IMG/VR virus record: IMGVR_UViG_2778261424_000010
Span: 1-41,171 of that record
Origin: a virus
Lineage: Duplodnaviria; Heunggongvirae; Uroviricota; Caudoviricetes
Length of the DNA: 41,171 nucleotides
Reading direction: 5' to 3' (one strand)
The notes beneath the pieces were generated by a model. That model saw nothing but the letters and a program-made list of their open reading frames with translations. It ran no database searches and was not told where the DNA came from. Below, piece after piece: positions 5,693 through 14,379 of this stretch (positions within the stretch are counted from its first letter, which is position 1; each line of letters opens with the position of its first letter). The position numbers and the translations under genes are program-made.

Positions 5693-5762
5693 TGGTGGAG
5701 TGCTACGGATTCGAACCGAAGTTTTCATGGGTGATCAGTCCATGCAGGCCCAGCCACACCCC
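5693..5762 (-). ncRNA. tRNA-like element (degenerate cloverleaf with encoded CCA) inside the PL leader
   Basis: Minus strand: GGGGUGU GGCUGGGCCUG CAUGG ACUGAUCAC CCAUG AAAAC UUCGG UUCGAAU CCGUA GCACUCC A CCA. It has a 7-bp acceptor stem (two G-U pairs) and a 5-bp anticodon-like stem with a 9-nt loop. The variable region is 5 nt. The T-arm has the canonical UUCGAAU loop and one U-U mismatch. The D-arm is reduced to an 11-nt stretch. Confidence 0.45.
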
Positions 5763-6839: not shown

Positions 6840-6871
6840 CTCCAAATCAAACGACTCACCCGGAGACACCA

Positions 6872-7105
6872 ATGAGCACTGAACTACACCGCTGGCGCAA
6901 GGCCGCCACTACCGACGAATGGGCGCAGCTCGCAAAGTTGGCTAACACGACGCCAGGTTACCTGGACCAGATCGCCTACGGAAATCGCCGGGCATCTCCA
7001 GAAATGGCATCTGCTATCGAGAAAGGCACGAAGAATTTTCACCGCCAGGCTCCGGTCCTAAAAGAAAGCCTGGTATTCGCATCGCCGCGTGATACTGCGG
7101 CCTAA
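6872..7105 (+). CDS. cro: Cro/YdaS-type small HTH regulator
   Basis: 77 aa, divergent from cI across the operator cluster. The HTH-like segment is WAQLAKLANTTPGYLDQIAYG. Confidence 0.75.
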   Translation: MSTELHRWRKAATTDEWAQLAKLANTTPGYLDQIAYGNRRASPEMASAIEKGTKNFHRQAPVLKESLVFASPRDTAA

Positions 7106-7122: not shown

Positions 7123-7665
7123 ATGCATTCACTTGCGTATCAACACAATACCGGAATACACCCGGGAGCGATGATAAACCGCGCTCAACCTAAGGCGGCG
7201 CCAGACCACGAAAAGATCCGCGATGCGGTCCGGGCATGGTCTTCGGCGCTGGACAATCAGGACGTCGTTTCGGCACTGATCATCAACGAATACCGGGAGC
7301 AGGGCGGTACCGCCATCAGCTTCCCGGAAGACATCAGCCGGGCGCGCCAGAAGCTGTTTCGCTTCCTCGATAACCGTTTCGACTCTGAGCAGTACCGCGA
7401 GAACGTGCGCCAGCTGACACCCGCAATCATGGCGGTCCTGCCGGTTGAGTATCGCACTCGCCTGATCGGTGCCGATTGCAAAATGTCTCGCCTGGCTGAG
7501 GCCGAGAAAGAACTCGCAGAGGCTAAACAGGCAGTGCTGCTGGACGCTCCAGAGCATCAGAAGCTGAAAGAGGTAAGCGAGGGTATAGCGTCGCTGTTCC
7601 GCCTCATGCCTGAGCAGGTAGGGCCGCTGATGACGATGGTTACGTCGATGCTGGGGGCTATGTGA
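7123..7665 (+). CDS. ydaT: YdaT-family protein in the cII position
   Basis: 180 aa. The segment EYREQGG...QLTPAIMAVLPVEYRTRL parallels Rac YdaT (EEYLRQGG...LIPAILAILPRELRHRL) as I remember it. It is the second gene of the PR operon. Confidence 0.65.
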   Translation: MHSLAYQHNTGIHPGAMINRAQPKAAPDHEKIRDAVRAWSSALDNQDVVSALIINEYREQGGTAISFPEDISRARQKLFRFLDNRFDSEQYRENVRQLTPAIMAVLPVEYRTRLIGADCKMSRLAEAEKELAEAKQAVLLDAPEHQKLKEVSEGIASLFRLMPEQVGPLMTMVTSMLGAM

Positions 7666-7901: not shown

Positions 7902-8790
7902 CGTATCTAATTTAGCCGAAGCCAGAGAGGCCAGAAGGCTCCAGAAACCGCGCACGAATGACGGTAAGGGGTTTGCCTTGCTGCACCGTAAAATTATGGA
8001 TGTGCCGTTCTACAAGGATGCTGAGGCGGCTCATTTGTGGGTTCACCTGCTCCTGCGTGCCAATCACGAACAGACACTGGTATCCACGGATGTCGGCGAT
8101 GTGATCTGTGAACGCGGAGAGTTCATCACCGGGCGCAACACACTGGCAATGGAAACGGGTTTGACCGCTGATCGCGTTAAATCACTGCTCCGTAAATTCC
8201 AGAACCTGGGCATGATCACCACCAAATCGAACAACCGTTTTACTGTTCTAAAAGTGGTCAAATATGACGAATATCAGTCAAATTTTTGTCCAGCCGATGC
8301 CCAGCCAGTGTCCAGCGCAAACGCAGTTATATCAATGCCTGCGGAGGTGGAGTGTCCAGCCGATGTCCAGCCAGTGTCCACAGATAACAATATATTAAAT
8401 AACTCTCTTACTAACGTAAGAGAGTGTGCATCAGCAGCAGAAAAACCAGAGCAGAAAAAACCTTCTCTCAGCTGTGAGCAGGTAGTCGAGGTTTACCATC
8501 GCGTACTGCCTGAAGCCCAGAGCATCAGGATACTGACTGACAAGCGCCGTGCTCTGATCCGCACCTTCTGGCAGAAGGCCGGGAAAGTAACTCAGCAGCT
8601 CGACGGCCATAAGTTCACCTTGAGCGACTGGGAATCGTATCTGAGCTACATCGCCACTAACTGCCGCTGGATGCTGGAGAACCGCCCAGACCAGCGCACG
8701 GGACGCACATGGCGCCGCAAGGCTCTCGAATACTTCCTGAACGTGGATGTGTATGCCAAGACGCGCGAGGGGGCCTGTGATGACCTCTGA
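7888..8790 (+). CDS. Replication initiator (O-like; winged-helix N-domain plus conserved phage C-terminal domain)
   Basis: About 300 aa, with iterons embedded mid-gene. The C-terminal segment VVEVYHRVLP...FWQKAG...DWESYLSYIA is typical of the conserved phage C-terminus family. The likely true start is GTG 7894, 7 nt after AAGGAG. Confidence 0.8.
   Translation: MAVGNVSNLAEAREARRLQKPRTNDGKGFALLHRKIMDVPFYKDAEAAHLWVHLLLRANHEQTLVSTDVGDVICERGEFITGRNTLAMETGLTADRVKSLLRKFQNLGMITTKSNNRFTVLKVVKYDEYQSNFCPADAQPVSSANAVISMPAEVECPADVQPVSTDNNILNNSLTNVRECASAAEKPEQKKPSLSCEQVVEVYHRVLPEAQSIRILTDKRRALIRTFWQKAGKVTQQLDGHKFTLSDWESYLSYIATNCRWMLENRPDQRTGRTWRRKALEYFLNVDVYAKTREGACDDL
8287..8424. repeat. Putative origin of replication inside the initiator gene
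   Basis: The 28-bp unit TGTCCAGCCGATG(C/T)CCAGCCAGTGTCCA occurs at 8287-8314 and 8353-8380, each built from (G/C)CCAGCC / GTCCA sub-repeats. An AT-rich stretch follows at 8381-8402. It is followed by a perfect 9-bp inverted repeat CTCTCTTAC-TAAC-GTAAGAGAG (8403-8424). Confidence 0.6.
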
Positions 8791-10802: not shown

Positions 10803-11095
10803 AAATTTACATCGCAGGACCAATGACAGGTTACGAAAATTACAACCGTCCGATGTTTAACGCAGTAGCACAGCAGATGTTATCAGGTGGTCATGTGGCA
10901 TTAAATCCGGCCACGCTCCCGGATGGTTTATCTCAGCGTGAGTATATGGACATCTGCCTGGCGATGCTTCGCTGCGCCGACGCCATTCACATGCTGCATG
11001 GGTGGCAAGAGTCGGAAGGTGCCGTCGCTGAGCATGCCATGGCTAAAAAGCTGGGAATTAAAATTTCTTACCAATTTGAAGGAGCTGCCGCATGA
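10799..11095 (+). CDS. DUF4406-like protein (nucleoside 2-deoxyribosyltransferase-like fold)
   Basis: 98 aa. MKIYIAGPMTG...N...F matches the DUF4406 N-terminal signature as I remember it. Confidence 0.6.
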   Translation: MKIYIAGPMTGYENYNRPMFNAVAQQMLSGGHVALNPATLPDGLSQREYMDICLAMLRCADAIHMLHGWQESEGAVAEHAMAKKLGIKISYQFEGAAA

Positions 11096-11388
11096 AACCA
11101 ACATACGAAGAACTTGAAGCCAAGTGCGCGGCTCTGGCTGCGGAGAATGCGGGGCTGAATAACTTCATTAAGGCTGATTGCTGGGTCTGGGATGACAAAG
11201 CCGAAGAATATATCGACGCAGTTGATTGTATGCCAGAAATCCCGGCAACAGACGCTTTCCTGGCTGAAGTGCGGGCCAGCGGTGTGGAGATGCTTGCCAG
11301 AGAAACAGAAAAACTCGGATGGCATGAATCAACAGTAAGATTTGTGCTGAAGTTCGCTGCCCAAATTCGTAAAGGAGCGCAGTCATGA
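11092..11388 (+). CDS. Hypothetical nin-region protein
   Basis: 98 aa with ATGA-coupled starts at both ends and an N-terminal coiled-coil. Confidence 0.5.
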   Translation: MKPTYEELEAKCAALAAENAGLNNFIKADCWVWDDKAEEYIDAVDCMPEIPATDAFLAEVRASGVEMLARETEKLGWHESTVRFVLKFAAQIRKGAQS

Positions 11389-11570
11389 AAAACCGTAAAG
11401 CCAAAATCATCGTTCTTCGCGCTCTGAAAAACTGCTACCCGCGCCAATGGCTGAATGTAAGCAATCGACGCATGGTTCTCTTCACGCTCGGTGGTGTTAG
11501 CCGTGAAGGGCATCAATTCAAAAAGAGCGCAGCACAGAATCGCTGGAAGAATCATGTGAGGTTCCAATGA
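11385..11570 (+). CDS. Hypothetical small basic protein
   Basis: 61 aa, translationally coupled at both ends. Confidence 0.4.
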   Translation: MKNRKAKIIVLRALKNCYPRQWLNVSNRRMVLFTLGGVSREGHQFKKSAAQNRWKNHVRFQ

Positions 11571-12322
11571 GCAACATCGACAAACATGCCGTCCAAGCAG
11601 TTGCCGATTTGAAAGCTGGTTACACCCTCGGTCACGCTGATGTGGCAATCCTGAACGAGTTGGCGCGTATCGCGCTGGCATCGCTCGAAGCGGAGGCTGT
11701 GGCTGATGTTGTCGCATGGTCTTCGCCAAACGAAGAGCGAACCTGTGATATCCGTATGCGTCGTCATGATATCAAGCCTGGCTCGCTCTACACCGCACCG
11801 CCAGCGCCGGAATTCTACAAGATAGGTGACGCCACCATGCGCCACATCTTCACGCCCGCTGTCATAACTGATGTTTCTGACATGCAGGCTGTGTTTGACC
11901 AGATTGAAACCGTGTTGGCAGGAATGTGGCAGCCAGCACCGGTATCTGTGCCTGATGAGCTAACCCGCGAAGAGTACAAGCGTCGGTTCATGGAAGATGA
12001 CTCTTTTGATGACACTTTCCGAGGTGGCTGGAACGCCTGCCGCGCCGCCATGCTTCATGGTGCCGAACCTGTAAGTAATCGTGATGAGTTGACAGACGGT
12101 TGGGTGGCTTGCAGTAAGCGGATGCCAAGCCCATCAACAGGTGTGATAGTTGCTGCGCCATGGCAATCAGCTCCTGGCGGCTATGCAATGAAGTGGGCAA
12201 CAAATTGCCCTGGGCATCCGGATGCAGATATAGATGGCTGGATTATACCAGGAGCATCATGGAGCCCAACCCACTGGATGCCGCTGCCGGCAGCGCCGCA
12301 GCAGGAAGATATTATTTGCTGA
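11567..12322 (+). CDS. DUF551-domain protein
   Basis: 251 aa. The C-terminus GWVACSKRMP...THWMPLPAAP is the DUF551 signature common in lambdoid nin regions. Confidence 0.65.
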   Translation: MSNIDKHAVQAVADLKAGYTLGHADVAILNELARIALASLEAEAVADVVAWSSPNEERTCDIRMRRHDIKPGSLYTAPPAPEFYKIGDATMRHIFTPAVITDVSDMQAVFDQIETVLAGMWQPAPVSVPDELTREEYKRRFMEDDSFDDTFRGGWNACRAAMLHGAEPVSNRDELTDGWVACSKRMPSPSTGVIVAAPWQSAPGGYAMKWATNCPGHPDADIDGWIIPGASWSPTHWMPLPAAPQQEDIIC

Positions 12323-12323
12323 T

Positions 12324-12761
12324 CTAAGATGGTCTGTATGTAACAACCACCCCTAACTTACTGCCTACCGCATTGAGAGAATTAGAAATAGTTGTATAGG
12401 TTTCTTTGGGGGTGGTGTTTCTTCCTTCTTCTAAAATAGACGCAATAAGATTCAGATTCCACGAGGCCTTAAGGACATCTTTGTATCGAGGAAGGAGACG
12501 TAAAGTAGCCAACATTCCATACAAGGGTATGGCATTAGATTTTGACAACAGCAAAGCTGACGCCTGTTTGATTTCGTTTATTACTTCGCTTTTCGCATTG
12601 ATGCTAAGGATTTTATTTTGCTCACGCAGGAGAATGGCCGAAACCATCCCCAAATGTTCCTTGAATGAAATGTAAGGATCAAGCATGGATTTTACAAATA
12701 TCTGACCCAACACAAACACTGAAACACCAGTAATGACGGTAGTAAACACCCCATTATTCAT
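12324..12761 (-). CDS. Moron-encoded membrane-anchored protein, unknown function
   Basis: 145 aa. The N-terminal TM helix is VFTTVITGVSVFVLGQIFV, followed by a helical soluble part. The gene is AT-rich and antisense to the whole PR operon. Its stop lies 1 nt from the DUF551 stop. Confidence 0.7.
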   Translation of the reverse strand: MNNGVFTTVITGVSVFVLGQIFVKSMLDPYISFKEHLGMVSAILLREQNKILSINAKSEVINEIKQASALLLSKSNAIPLYGMLATLRLLPRYKDVLKASWNLNLIASILEEGRNTTPKETYTTISNSLNAVGSKLGVVVTYRPS

Positions 12762-12821
12762 AACCAGGCCATCCCTTCTGTTTTTTATCCCGATATCATA
12801 ATCTACGGATTGTTTAACAAG

Positions 12822-12959
12822 CTAGATCAAATCCAGCCTTCCCTGAAGTACTAATTGCAAATGTATTTTGTGAATCATCCCGGCGGGTAGAGATTTATAA
12901 ACCAGCATCAAGACACCAATGGCCTCTTCGAAGGCCTTTCTCTTATGTTGATTTTCCAT
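12822..12959 (-). CDS. Possible 45-aa upstream partner ORF
   Basis: MENQHKRKAFEEAIGVLMLVYKSLPAGMIHKIHLQLVLQGRLDLI from ATG 12959. The SD is weak. It shares the strand and the AT-rich island with the 145-aa gene. Confidence 0.25.
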   Translation of the reverse strand: MENQHKRKAFEEAIGVLMLVYKSLPAGMIHKIHLQLVLQGRLDLI

Positions 12960-13129
12960 AATCAACCAGCCATAATTTAACCGTCGTCGGAGTTGAACGC
13001 CCGACGGTAAGACTTCTGCGCATTTAAGGGGACTTAAATGCGACCACAATATGAACTTCTCACCTTGTCACAGATGCAGAAATGCACCTGCGATTTTCTG
13101 TATTCTGCGTTACCTCTCGGAGGTGGCGT

Positions 13130-13567
13130 ATGAAACAGCCTGTTTTCTACCTCCGCGACGAACGCGTTCGCGATAACCTCATCGACTACATCAGGAAGCT
13201 GCCTGTTAACGACGCTCTGCCGCTCGTGGTGAAGTTTTCTGAGGCTGACCGCACTCTCGCCCAAAACGACCTCTTCCACGCTCTCTGTGGCGATACAGCG
13301 AAGCAATTGCAATGGGCTGGCAAGTCGCGCGACCTCGCTTCATGGAAAGTCCTGTATGTCTCAGGCCATGCCATTGCCACCGGTAAGCCTGGTGAAGTGG
13401 TGCCGGGTCTGGAAGGGGAGTTCTGCGCCATCCGGGAAAGCACTGCGAAGATGGGCATCCGTCGCATGACCAGTCTCATCGAATACAGCCAGGCATTTGC
13501 TGTGCAAAACGGCGTGCAACTCCGTGAAGTTCGCTACTCAGGTGATTACTTCGGGAGGGTTGCGTAA
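13130..13567 (+). CDS. ninB: NinB recombination protein
   Basis: 145 aa from ATG 13130 (SD GGAGGTGG). LAQNDLFHALCGD...W...WK parallels lambda NinB (LDQNRKLWACLGD). Confidence 0.85.
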   Translation: MKQPVFYLRDERVRDNLIDYIRKLPVNDALPLVVKFSEADRTLAQNDLFHALCGDTAKQLQWAGKSRDLASWKVLYVSGHAIATGKPGEVVPGLEGEFCAIRESTAKMGIRRMTSLIEYSQAFAVQNGVQLREVRYSGDYFGRVA

Positions 13568-13737
13568 TGGCTAGCCCTCTCGCTCGCATCATCACCAACG
13601 AAATCTACCGGGTCCGGACACGCACTAAGCGCAAGCCTGAACTCAAGCCATCCGAAATCCCATCACTGCTCGGCTACACCGCGCGACTGACCCAGGTGAA
13701 ATGGGATCGCCTGAAAGCGCGGAGGTCACATGGCTAA
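13567..13737 (+). CDS. ninE: NinE-like small protein (not in the ORF track)
   Basis: 56 aa: [56 protein letters not shown]. The basic-KPxP and YTAxL...W..R...R pattern resembles DLP12/lambda NinE. Both ends are translationally coupled. Confidence 0.5.
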   Translation: MASPLARIITNEIYRVRTRTKRKPELKPSEIPSLLGYTARLTQVKWDRLKARRSHG

Positions 13738-14020
13738 TTTATGCAAAGCGGCACGCGGCCGCGATTGTCAGGTGCGGATCCCCGGCGTATGCAACGGCAA
13801 TCCTGAAACCTCAGTACTGGCTCACATACGTCTTGCTGGTCTATGCGGGACCGGAATCAAGCCGCCTGACCTGATCGCCACCATCGCATGCAGCAGTTGC
13901 CACGACGAGATTGATCGCCGCACCCGTCTGGTCGATGCGGAATTTGCAAAGGAGTGCGCGCTGGAAGGCATGGCTCGCACGCAGGTCATCTGGCTTAAAG
14001 AGGGGCTCGTGAAAGCATGA
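13730..14020 (+). CDS. ybcO: YbcO-like (DUF1364) protein
   Basis: 96 aa, near-identical in pattern to DLP12 YbcO ([29 protein letters not shown]...CHDEIDRRT). Confidence 0.8.
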
Positions 14021-14379
14021 ATGAATACCGCATTAGCCTCCCGTGGCCGCCGAGCAACAACCGCTACTACCGGCATAACCGCGGGCGCACGCACATCAGC
14101 ACAGAGGGGCAGGCGTACCGCGACAGTGTCGCCAGAATCATCAAAGACTCAATGCTGGATATCGGCCTGGCTACACCCGTGAAAATCCGCATTGAGTGCC
14201 ACATGCCGGATCGCCGTCGCCGTGACCTGGATAATCTGCAAAAGGCCGCTTTTGACGCACTCACCAAAGCAGGTTTCTGGCTGGACGATGCTCAGGTCGT
14301 TGATTATCGCGTTGTGAAGATGCCCGTTACCAAAGGTGGAAAGCTGGAACTGACAATCACCGGGCTGGAGGCCGTATGA
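14017..14379 (+). CDS. rusA: RusA Holliday-junction resolvase
   Basis: 120 aa. [19 protein letters not shown]...[28 protein letters not shown] matches E. coli RusA almost residue for residue. Confidence 0.92.

Follow-up and report, generated by a model that had tools for sequence, protein, structure and literature searches.

A sporadic antisense moron upstream of the ninB leader encodes a small predicted membrane protein of a widespread family with a possible anti-phage role

Which parts of an AT-rich antisense island in the nin region of a lambdoid prophage belong together, and what might the gene that it carries do? The island lies on the minus strand between a gene of the DUF551 family and ninB in the 41,171-nucleotide (nt) IMG/VR record IMGVR_UViG_2778261424_000010, which was analysed as a whole and is called the window here; coordinates are window positions unless another locus is named. 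The original prediction regarded about 800 bp as a single cassette, composed of a gene for a 145-residue protein, a possible 45-residue partner and two hairpins, and likened it to superinfection-exclusion and abortive-infection genes. All of these features are present at their predicted positions, but they are not parts of a single unit: the island proper carries a single gene, and both hairpins belong to a structured leader of the neighbouring nin operon. The 145-residue protein may be a superinfection-exclusion or abortive-infection protein expressed by the prophage, a reading drawn from its context, to which a probability of roughly 45% is assigned.

Comparison by blastn with cassette-free prophages (loci L011, L012 and L013), together with base composition, defines a foreign island of one gene and its upstream control region at 12323 to about 12915 on the minus strand. 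On the left, similarity to these prophages ends at 12306-12322, at the end of the DUF551 gene, and on the right it restarts at 12912-12921, which places the insertion boundaries at 12322 and about 12915. The G+C fraction over approximately 12300-12950 is 0.39-0.41, against 0.54-0.58 in both flanks, in agreement with the AT-rich character first noticed. The length of the island is actually about 600 bp; the adjoining 12921-13129, which contains both hairpins, is a conserved element that is also found in cassette-free phages. The left-hand DUF551 gene (11567-12322, plus strand; Pfam DUF551, expectation value E = 2.2e-12) converges on the cassette gene, and the two stop codons, TGA at 12320-12322 and that of the cassette gene at 12324-12326, are separated by a single base, as had been predicted. 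On the right lies ninB (13130-13567, plus strand; Pfam NinB, E = 5.5e-39). The whole 841-bp region occurs in 12 of 5426 complete Escherichia coli genomes, whereas its right-hand ~220 bp occurs in 1205 of them, and in cassette-free relatives the slot is filled instead by a plus-strand open reading frame (ORF) of about 80 residues. Because of this uneven distribution, the cassette-free phages, the blastn junctions and the other ORF in the slot, the island is a sporadic, horizontally acquired single-gene moron and not a component of the nin region that is conserved in all relatives. The predicted sporadic, compositionally foreign antisense insertion between early accessory genes and ninB is thereby borne out.

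The gene of the island (12324-12761, minus strand) encodes, as predicted, a protein of 145 residues, which appears to be a bitopic inner-membrane protein. No family had been recognised for it, and this holds for the curated libraries: the best Pfam-A match is DUF7456, with E = 0.13 and 12.3 bits against a cut-off of 27, all matches in NCBIfam have E > 0.1, and a sequence profile search of the PDB returned nothing below E = 0.05. It does not hold for the PHROG database, where residues 1-143 match positions 1-140 of the 141 positions of phrog_7512 (E = 1.3e-57, 195 bits); this full-length match is to a PHROG without functional annotation and thus supplies a name and no function. A word-indexed search returned 21 relatives, all from Enterobacteriaceae and P1-like elements; orthologues from Enterobacter, Kosakonia, Leclercia and Atlantibacter are 62-87% identical to the protein, and orf109 of phage D6 is 42% identical over 125 residues. 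An exhaustive profile search extended the family to 1585 representative clusters (E <= 1e-3), of which 694 also pass E <= 1e-10; with few exceptions the proteins have 135-160 residues, and named members come from Gammaproteobacteria, Deltaproteobacteria, Bacteroidota and Cyanobacteria. Pfam, NCBIfam and PADLOC assigned no family to ten diverse relatives either, some of them longer fusion forms, and the source names of ten clusters all read "hypothetical protein". The literature yielded nothing specific on the accession, phrog_7512, nin-region defence genes or the phi80 "IR4" sequence.

The predicted architecture of one N-terminal transmembrane (TM) helix and a helical cytoplasmic part is supported by an AlphaFold2 model and by charge bias. 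The model is all-helical, with a predicted local distance difference test (pLDDT) score of 78.5 and helices at residues 3-46, 58-77, 93-113 and 119-136; the long first helix includes the TM segment (approximately residues 5-24) and runs on into a four-helix bundle. Among 229 aligned members, conservation is highest in the segment 5-24, with a mean of 2.71 bits per position, and T8, G12 (97%), V13, V15, F16, G19 and Q20 (94%) are nearly invariant within it. Conservation continues at K24, D/E28-P29 (P29 98%), P91, N104, L136 and Y142, and a juxtamembrane K-x3-(D/E)-P motif follows the helix. The mean number of lysine and arginine residues is 0.30 in the N-terminal flank (median length four residues) versus 2.55 in the 15 residues past the TM helix, and an N-out, C-in topology with about four residues outside is therefore predicted. 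The conserved glycine/glutamine face suggests that the TM helix packs against another helix, either of a second copy of the protein or of a partner membrane protein. To judge from this pattern, the 145-residue ORF is a real, constrained gene of a widespread family that is named in no curated library. The absence of a known domain, the weak promoter and the lack of a terminator could also be taken as signs of a non-functional ORF hitch-hiking in AT-rich junk DNA; full-length conservation over hundreds of diverged clusters, with nearly invariant residues, and the occurrence of the gene as the sole content of integron cassettes speak against this, and make it a most improbable account.

The region upstream of the gene is consistent with transcription from a promoter of its own. 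The TATGAT hexamer that had been placed ahead of the gene is present at 12800-12795 on the minus strand, and a role as its -10 element is supported by a TAnnAT sequence at the same position in diverged cassette lineages, which read TATGAT, TACGAT, TACCAT, TAAAAT or TAGGAT. This pattern of fixed T, A and T with a free middle suggests a working -10 element. A weak -35-like hexamer, TAGCTT (12819-12824, minus strand), lies 18 nt upstream of it, and most of the lineages under comparison have T[AC]GC[CT]T at this distance from their -10, while one has AAGCTA. Further upstream, comparison of the cassettes reveals a conserved block, ACATTTGCAATTAGT (12864-12850, minus strand), which may be a regulator site; it is common to the Atlantibacter-type cassette and one other lineage, and in the Atlantibacter-type cassette it takes the form of a perfect palindrome, CTATTTGCAAATAG. 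Independent transcription of the cassette gene from its own promoter is therefore likely on the sequence comparison.

The relatives of the gene are found in widely different contexts. In Enterobacter, an orthologue (65% identical) occupies, at six loci, the position between a convergent DUF551 gene and a divergent ninB, and no gene is called in the 361-nt spacer. Kosakonia copies are found at the same junction and also in another prophage, between an 88-residue gene and early genes, while the Atlantibacter copies have P or DnaB on one side and a DUF1367 gene on the other, with just 94 nt upstream and without the leader. The flanks of the antisense cassette thus vary both on the left (DUF551, DnaB or small ORFs) and on the right (leader and ninB, leader and the 88-residue gene, or DUF1367 without the leader). 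More distant relatives are located 3' of humD in phage D6 and P1-like phage-plasmids, and another adjoins a helix-turn-helix gene on a contig of about 48 kb that resembles a phage-plasmid. Pseudoalteromonas has one within a P2/P4-like region, one is inserted alone between gdh and pyrD, and the Synechococcus copy is flanked by TerB/HigB genes and by a gene for a type IIG restriction-modification protein of 1631 residues accompanied by an SNF2 helicase.

Relatives in Marinobacter daepoensis and Pseudoalteromonas aliena are integron cassettes bounded by attC sites, and the P. aliena cassette, 552 nt long, has a family member as its sole ORF. At one of these loci (L161) repeats at ~542-616 and 1071-1168 flank the ORF at 632-1078, and at the other (L159) repeats at 7491-7575 and 8441-8525 flank the ORF at 8001-8444; the attC repeats of both begin with TAACAAG and finish with GCGTTA, in agreement with an array of same-strand cassettes. 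Bounding by attC sites characterises these two relatives and does not apply to the window copy. The cassettes at L159 7491-8525 and L161 542-1168 have a near-identical start (GTTATAACTCA.GGAGAGTT). This similarity suggests that the two genera exchanged the cassette recently. No neighbouring gene is conserved across the lambdoid, P1-like, phage-plasmid, integron and chromosomal contexts, and on this comparison the 145-residue gene is an autonomous single-gene unit that appears to need no partner.

The slot itself was surveyed in about 90 leader-bearing IMG/VR loci that had been gathered independently of the 145-residue protein. Most of them have small plus-strand ORFs upstream of the leader, and about one in ten has antisense ORFs. 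The antisense occupants include a member of the 145-residue family (L131), a 244-residue Abi_alpha/PDC-S47 protein encoded 79-813 nt 5' of the leader -10 at L144 (Pfam E = 2.7e-33), a 266-residue protein with a TM segment and a coiled coil, a possible two-gene pair of 125 and 161 residues, the latter with several TM segments, and several smaller ORFs. A 125-residue slot ORF at L120 matches Phage_Gp111 (E = 5.7e-07); among the other antisense slot ORFs, only this one and Abi_alpha are supported beyond their status as ORFs. Further loci with antisense ORFs in the slot are L054, L134, L097/L107 and L065/L085, in addition to L120. The survey suggests that the slot upstream of the ninB leader is an antisense cargo hotspot in lambdoid phages.

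In the favoured reading, the gene would have its own promoter (-10 TATGAT, 12800-12795) and be transcribed in opposition to the PR operon. Its expression would thus be possible in a lysogen, where PR is repressed, while in the lytic cycle convergent transcription from PR would probably silence it. The protein would be inserted into the inner membrane by its one TM helix, with the conserved face T8/G12/G19/Q20 in the membrane and the helical bundle in the cytoplasm, and there it would defend the lysogen against other phages. Protection by exclusion might proceed through contacts of the TM helix with a host or phage membrane component that block genome entry, and protection by abortive infection might proceed through oligomerisation upon infection that leads to membrane damage. 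Two contexts point towards defence: Abi_alpha/PDC-S47 occupies the same slot in the antisense orientation in L144, and the Synechococcus relative lies beside a restriction-modification gene. Small anti-phage proteins, some of them with nothing recognisable but a TM segment, have been documented in both integron cassettes and prophage morons (10.1101/2024.07.02.601686; 10.1101/2024.07.02.601719; PMC10883804). A broader proposal, which is put forward more tentatively, is a widespread anti-phage system that acts autonomously with one protein and of which the 145-residue protein would be, as seen from this window, the founding member. Its TM face T8/G12/G19/Q20 would block genome translocation or nucleate a lethal pore, and its cassette of about 0.5 kb would move among lambdoid prophages, P1-like phage-plasmids and chromosomal integrons.

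Several results weigh against the favoured reading. The -35-like TAGCTT matches TTGACA at only two of six positions and is weak, and a simple consensus scan of 12000-13400 found no minus-strand promoter; nor is there a terminator-like site on the minus strand within 12000-13400, and because no intrinsic terminator was found, termination of the cassette transcript must rely on non-intrinsic means. The profile and structure searches that the original prediction had proposed produced phrog_7512 and the 1585 clusters, but no Pfam, NCBIfam, PADLOC or PDB family: none of the 5027 models of PADLOC-DB v2.0.0 matches the protein at E <= 10, the searches of Pfam, NCBIfam, PADLOC and the PDB revealed no homology to any experimentally tested defence protein, and fold comparison returned generic four-helix bundles only. 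The immediate neighbours of 13 chromosomal relatives (42 proteins scanned) are mostly housekeeping, transposase or phage tail genes with few defence matches; the picture is mixed, and enrichment of defence islands around these relatives is not claimed.

These neighbourhoods bear directly on a different account, according to which the gene is a lysogenic-conversion or cargo gene unrelated to phages, whose product would modulate a protein of the host inner membrane, or else envelope or stress processes, and give an advantage under certain conditions to the host or to the mobile element. Many relatives are single inserts amid housekeeping genes (between gdh and pyrD, or by hrpA, fur and bamE) without defence neighbours, integron cassettes are mostly of unassigned function and need not be antiviral, and the conserved TM face is compatible with binding to a host membrane protein. 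However, the Enterobacteriaceae copies are found almost solely in temperate-phage accessory slots, one of which also hosts Abi_alpha, and the protein has no domain that would point to a metabolic or regulatory role. Host cargo of this kind is considered somewhat unlikely.

The helical architecture with a single TM segment also brings to mind a toxic or lysis-related membrane protein that serves the phage's own cycle, such as a holin- or antiholin-like protein, a spanin-like protein or an addiction toxin. The protein is close in size to lambda Rz, its gene adjoins phd-doc in P1-like elements, and proteins with a TM segment as their only feature are capable of forming pores. Yet the gene lies outside the lysis cassette, at the junction of the replication and nin regions, and in the related E. 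coli KL53 prophage separate genes downstream of Q encode holin and lysozyme. The cassette gene also runs antisense to the lytic operon, has no embedded or adjacent partner gene, and is also found in integron arrays and at chromosomal sites with no phage nearby. The charge bias, moreover, predicts a C-in topology, opposite to that of an i-spanin (N-in/C-out). A lysis or toxin function is improbable on these grounds, and the prophage-expressed exclusion or abortive-infection protein continues to be preferred.

How, then, does the cassette compare with known systems? Morons are said to have been described by Juhala and co-workers in 2000 as extra transcription units inserted between genes that are adjacent in relatives. 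The island shares with the morons of lambdoid phages its absence from close relatives, its distinct composition, a promoter-like element, a variable slot and an orientation independent of the flanking operon; it differs from them in lacking a terminator of its own, its gene ending 1 nt from the DUF551 stop. In kind the cassette is an ordinary moron. The uncharacterised gene in it is a good candidate, and could reasonably be proposed to specify a new one-protein membrane defence.

Among characterised exclusion proteins, SieA of P22 is an inner-membrane protein of 162-164 residues with three predicted TM helices and the motif FxRYPxEAxxFNK (PMC10883804). Like the 145-residue protein, it is small, located in the inner membrane, borne by a prophage and encoded by a single sufficient gene, and it offers a plausible model for a block to DNA entry. 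In contrast to SieA-type proteins, which have three or four TM helices, the 145-residue protein has one TM helix and a cytoplasmic bundle and lacks FxRYPxEAxxFNK; no named PHROG except phrog_7512 matches it, so that no sequence relationship to SieA was detected in the PHROG search. Brigantia is an anti-phage protein from the chromosomal integron of Vibrio cholerae in which a TM segment is the only recognisable feature (10.1101/2024.07.02.601686), and Deva/brcWGS21, from mobile integrons, is described as octameric and pore-like and interferes with T7 genome injection (10.1101/2024.07.02.601719). The resemblance to these two, which were recently shown to protect against phages, is one of form: all are small single proteins whose sole recognisable feature is a TM segment, and members of the present family, too, occur as integron cassettes. 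Abi_alpha (PF14337)/PDC-S47, which at L144 occupies the same antisense slot directly upstream of the ninB leader, is an unrelated protein of 244 residues, and the 145-residue protein does not match its hidden Markov model.

If the hairpins are not part of the cassette, to what do they belong? As judged by conservation and covariation, 12948-13132 on the plus strand is a conserved four-hairpin leader of the nin operon. It is preceded by a terminator-like hairpin, GGCCTCTTCGAAGGCC followed by TTTCTCTTAT (12921-12945, plus strand), which lies where lambda has tR2 and is part of the conserved module rather than of the island; the same motif, GAGGCC with TTTCTCTT, is found just 5' of the leader promoter in several IMG/VR loci. 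The leader starts at a promoter-like TTGATT-17-CATAAT (12948-12976, plus strand), supported by a layout common to the loci and by the annotation of phage 82, and the -35 hexamer forms one half of the overlapping palindrome TTGATT-N6-AATCAA. A role of this palindrome as an immunity operator was rejected, since it occurs only once in the window.

Hairpin A, the "second hairpin" of the original prediction, is formed by ACCGTCG and CGACGGT at 12980-12986 and 13002-13008, so it is present, at 12980-13008, as an element of the leader and not of the cassette; its stem letters differ freely by lineage while pairing is kept, with double changes in four of the five pairs of helix 1. The predicted 10-bp palindrome (13019-13042) is likewise present and proves to be leader hairpin B rather than a control element of the cassette. 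Its arms, CGCATTTAAG and CTTAAATGCG, lie at 13019-13028 and 13033-13042, enclose a nearly invariant GGGA loop of the GNRA type and correspond to "IR4" of phi80; all four pairs of helix 3 show double changes, and the chance expectation of a 10-bp perfect inverted repeat in 841 bp is, by our own estimate, about 0.01. Hairpin C (13067-13094, helix 4) has a GAAA loop, also of the GNRA type, and its closing pair covaries from UGCA-GAAA-UGCA to UGCU-GAAA-AGCA. In hairpin D (13106-13130, helix 6), the Shine-Dalgarno sequence of ninB, GGAGGTG, is paired with an upstream TTACCTC; three of its six pairs show double changes, and the stem varies with the identity of the downstream gene. All four hairpins are placed on the plus strand.

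With a 17-nt core pattern, 119 IMG/VR loci were recovered; pooled with loci collected earlier, they gave 116 distinct versions of the leader. RNAalifold predicted 31 pairs, 12 of which show compensatory changes, and a covariance model gave 99 hits in 100 sources. In the alignment fitted to this model, and therefore biased in favour of structure, 98.6% of the cells are paired versus 90.5% in shuffled alignments, none of 500 shuffles reaching the observed value; the covariation score is 0.287 versus 0.135 in shuffles, and slid controls are 28-39% paired. G-U pairs are frequent (UG:85, GU:89, GU:85 and UG:90) and would be C-A mismatches on the opposite strand. Because such pairs are possible on the plus strand only, the structure is that of ninB-sense RNA and not of the cassette transcript.

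Phages that have the leader but lack the cassette include phi80, phage 82, HK225 and HK639. In phi80, "IR4" lies upstream of the gene in the ninB position with no antisense cassette nearby, and in the phage 82 record X92588 the equivalent stretch is annotated with a putative -35/-10 and hairpin A as a "possible regulator-binding site"; both records mark the same sequences and give no function for them. The phage 82 "orf33", annotated in 1996 (L197, X92588, 134-235), spans hairpins B-D and is probably not protein-coding, given the conservation of the leader at the RNA level. Lambda differs in having the plain intrinsic terminator tR2 at the same position upstream of the first nin gene, and the covariance model does not match it. 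A search of 12200-13300 against Rfam 15 gave only a chance match to a plastid intron (E = 3.1). A put-like antitermination element and a translational control element are possibilities for the leader. Its identification with the prophage small RNAs AgvB or AsxR was rejected, as those are located at the PR' moron site (PMC4104026).

Two observations concern the wider occurrence of the leader. One locus (L087) carries two ninB-type leaders about 4 kb apart, at 6841-7003 and 10944-11106 (121.5 and 116.4 bits). In a Kosakonia cowanii prophage (L015/L016, 2375-3447), cassette and leader are found in a non-lambdoid arrangement, in which the leader lies ahead of the 88-residue gene, itself followed by SLT lysozyme and Dit-like tail genes; because it precedes the 88-residue gene there, the leader is not confined to ninB-type operons.

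The leader also decides the fate of the possible 45-residue partner. The ORF exists, with an ATG start, at 12959 to 12822 on the minus strand, nested in a 75-residue ORF with a TTG start, yet it crosses the right boundary of the island, its first 13 codons lying within the conserved leader/promoter module that is also found without the island. Enterobacter cassettes read ATT in place of its ATG. Translation of 400 nt upstream of eight diverged cassette lineages gave no peptide related to it (best local score <=47 versus 225 against itself), and its best family match is phrog_24589, with E = 0.34. The boundary crossing, the change of ATG to ATT and the lack of counterparts in other lineages rule it out as a gene, and it is placed outside the cassette as an unconserved ORF. 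A two-gene cassette, in which the 145-residue protein and its 45-residue partner would be controlled by the palindrome and the second hairpin as operator or terminator, would account for the fact that all of these elements exist upstream of the gene on the minus strand. It is nevertheless very improbable: besides the failings of the ORF itself, the hairpins are present without the cassette in phi80, phage 82, HK225 and HK639, the leader occurs in 1205 E. coli genomes, the G-U pairs of the hairpins form only in ninB-sense RNA, and the leader is missing from Atlantibacter-type cassettes, whose upstream sequence is just 94 nt long.

Two further observations concern the window as a whole. It is a mosaic with respect to the E. 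coli KL53 prophage: only 12026-14379, about 2.35 kb from around the cassette into the first part of the nin region, is ~98% identical, and elsewhere there are short similar patches. The idea that the two are the same phage was rejected, the ~98% identity being limited to this segment. A tRNA-Ile gene (anticodon GAT) is predicted by ARAGORN at 5693-5762 on the minus strand.

Regardless of the function of the 145-residue protein, the slot directly 5' of the ninB leader is a recurrent site of antisense cargo in lambdoid prophages, and the palindrome is part of a nin-operon leader that is present in about one-fifth of complete E. coli genomes and absent from Rfam, and not a control element of the cargo. 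If the anti-phage reading is true, a very compact (145 residues), partner-free and membrane-acting system would be added to the antiviral repertoire. Its distribution would already be mapped, in 1585 clusters across Proteobacteria, Bacteroidota and Cyanobacteria, and prophage morons, phage-plasmids and integron cassettes would be linked as reservoirs of small defence genes.

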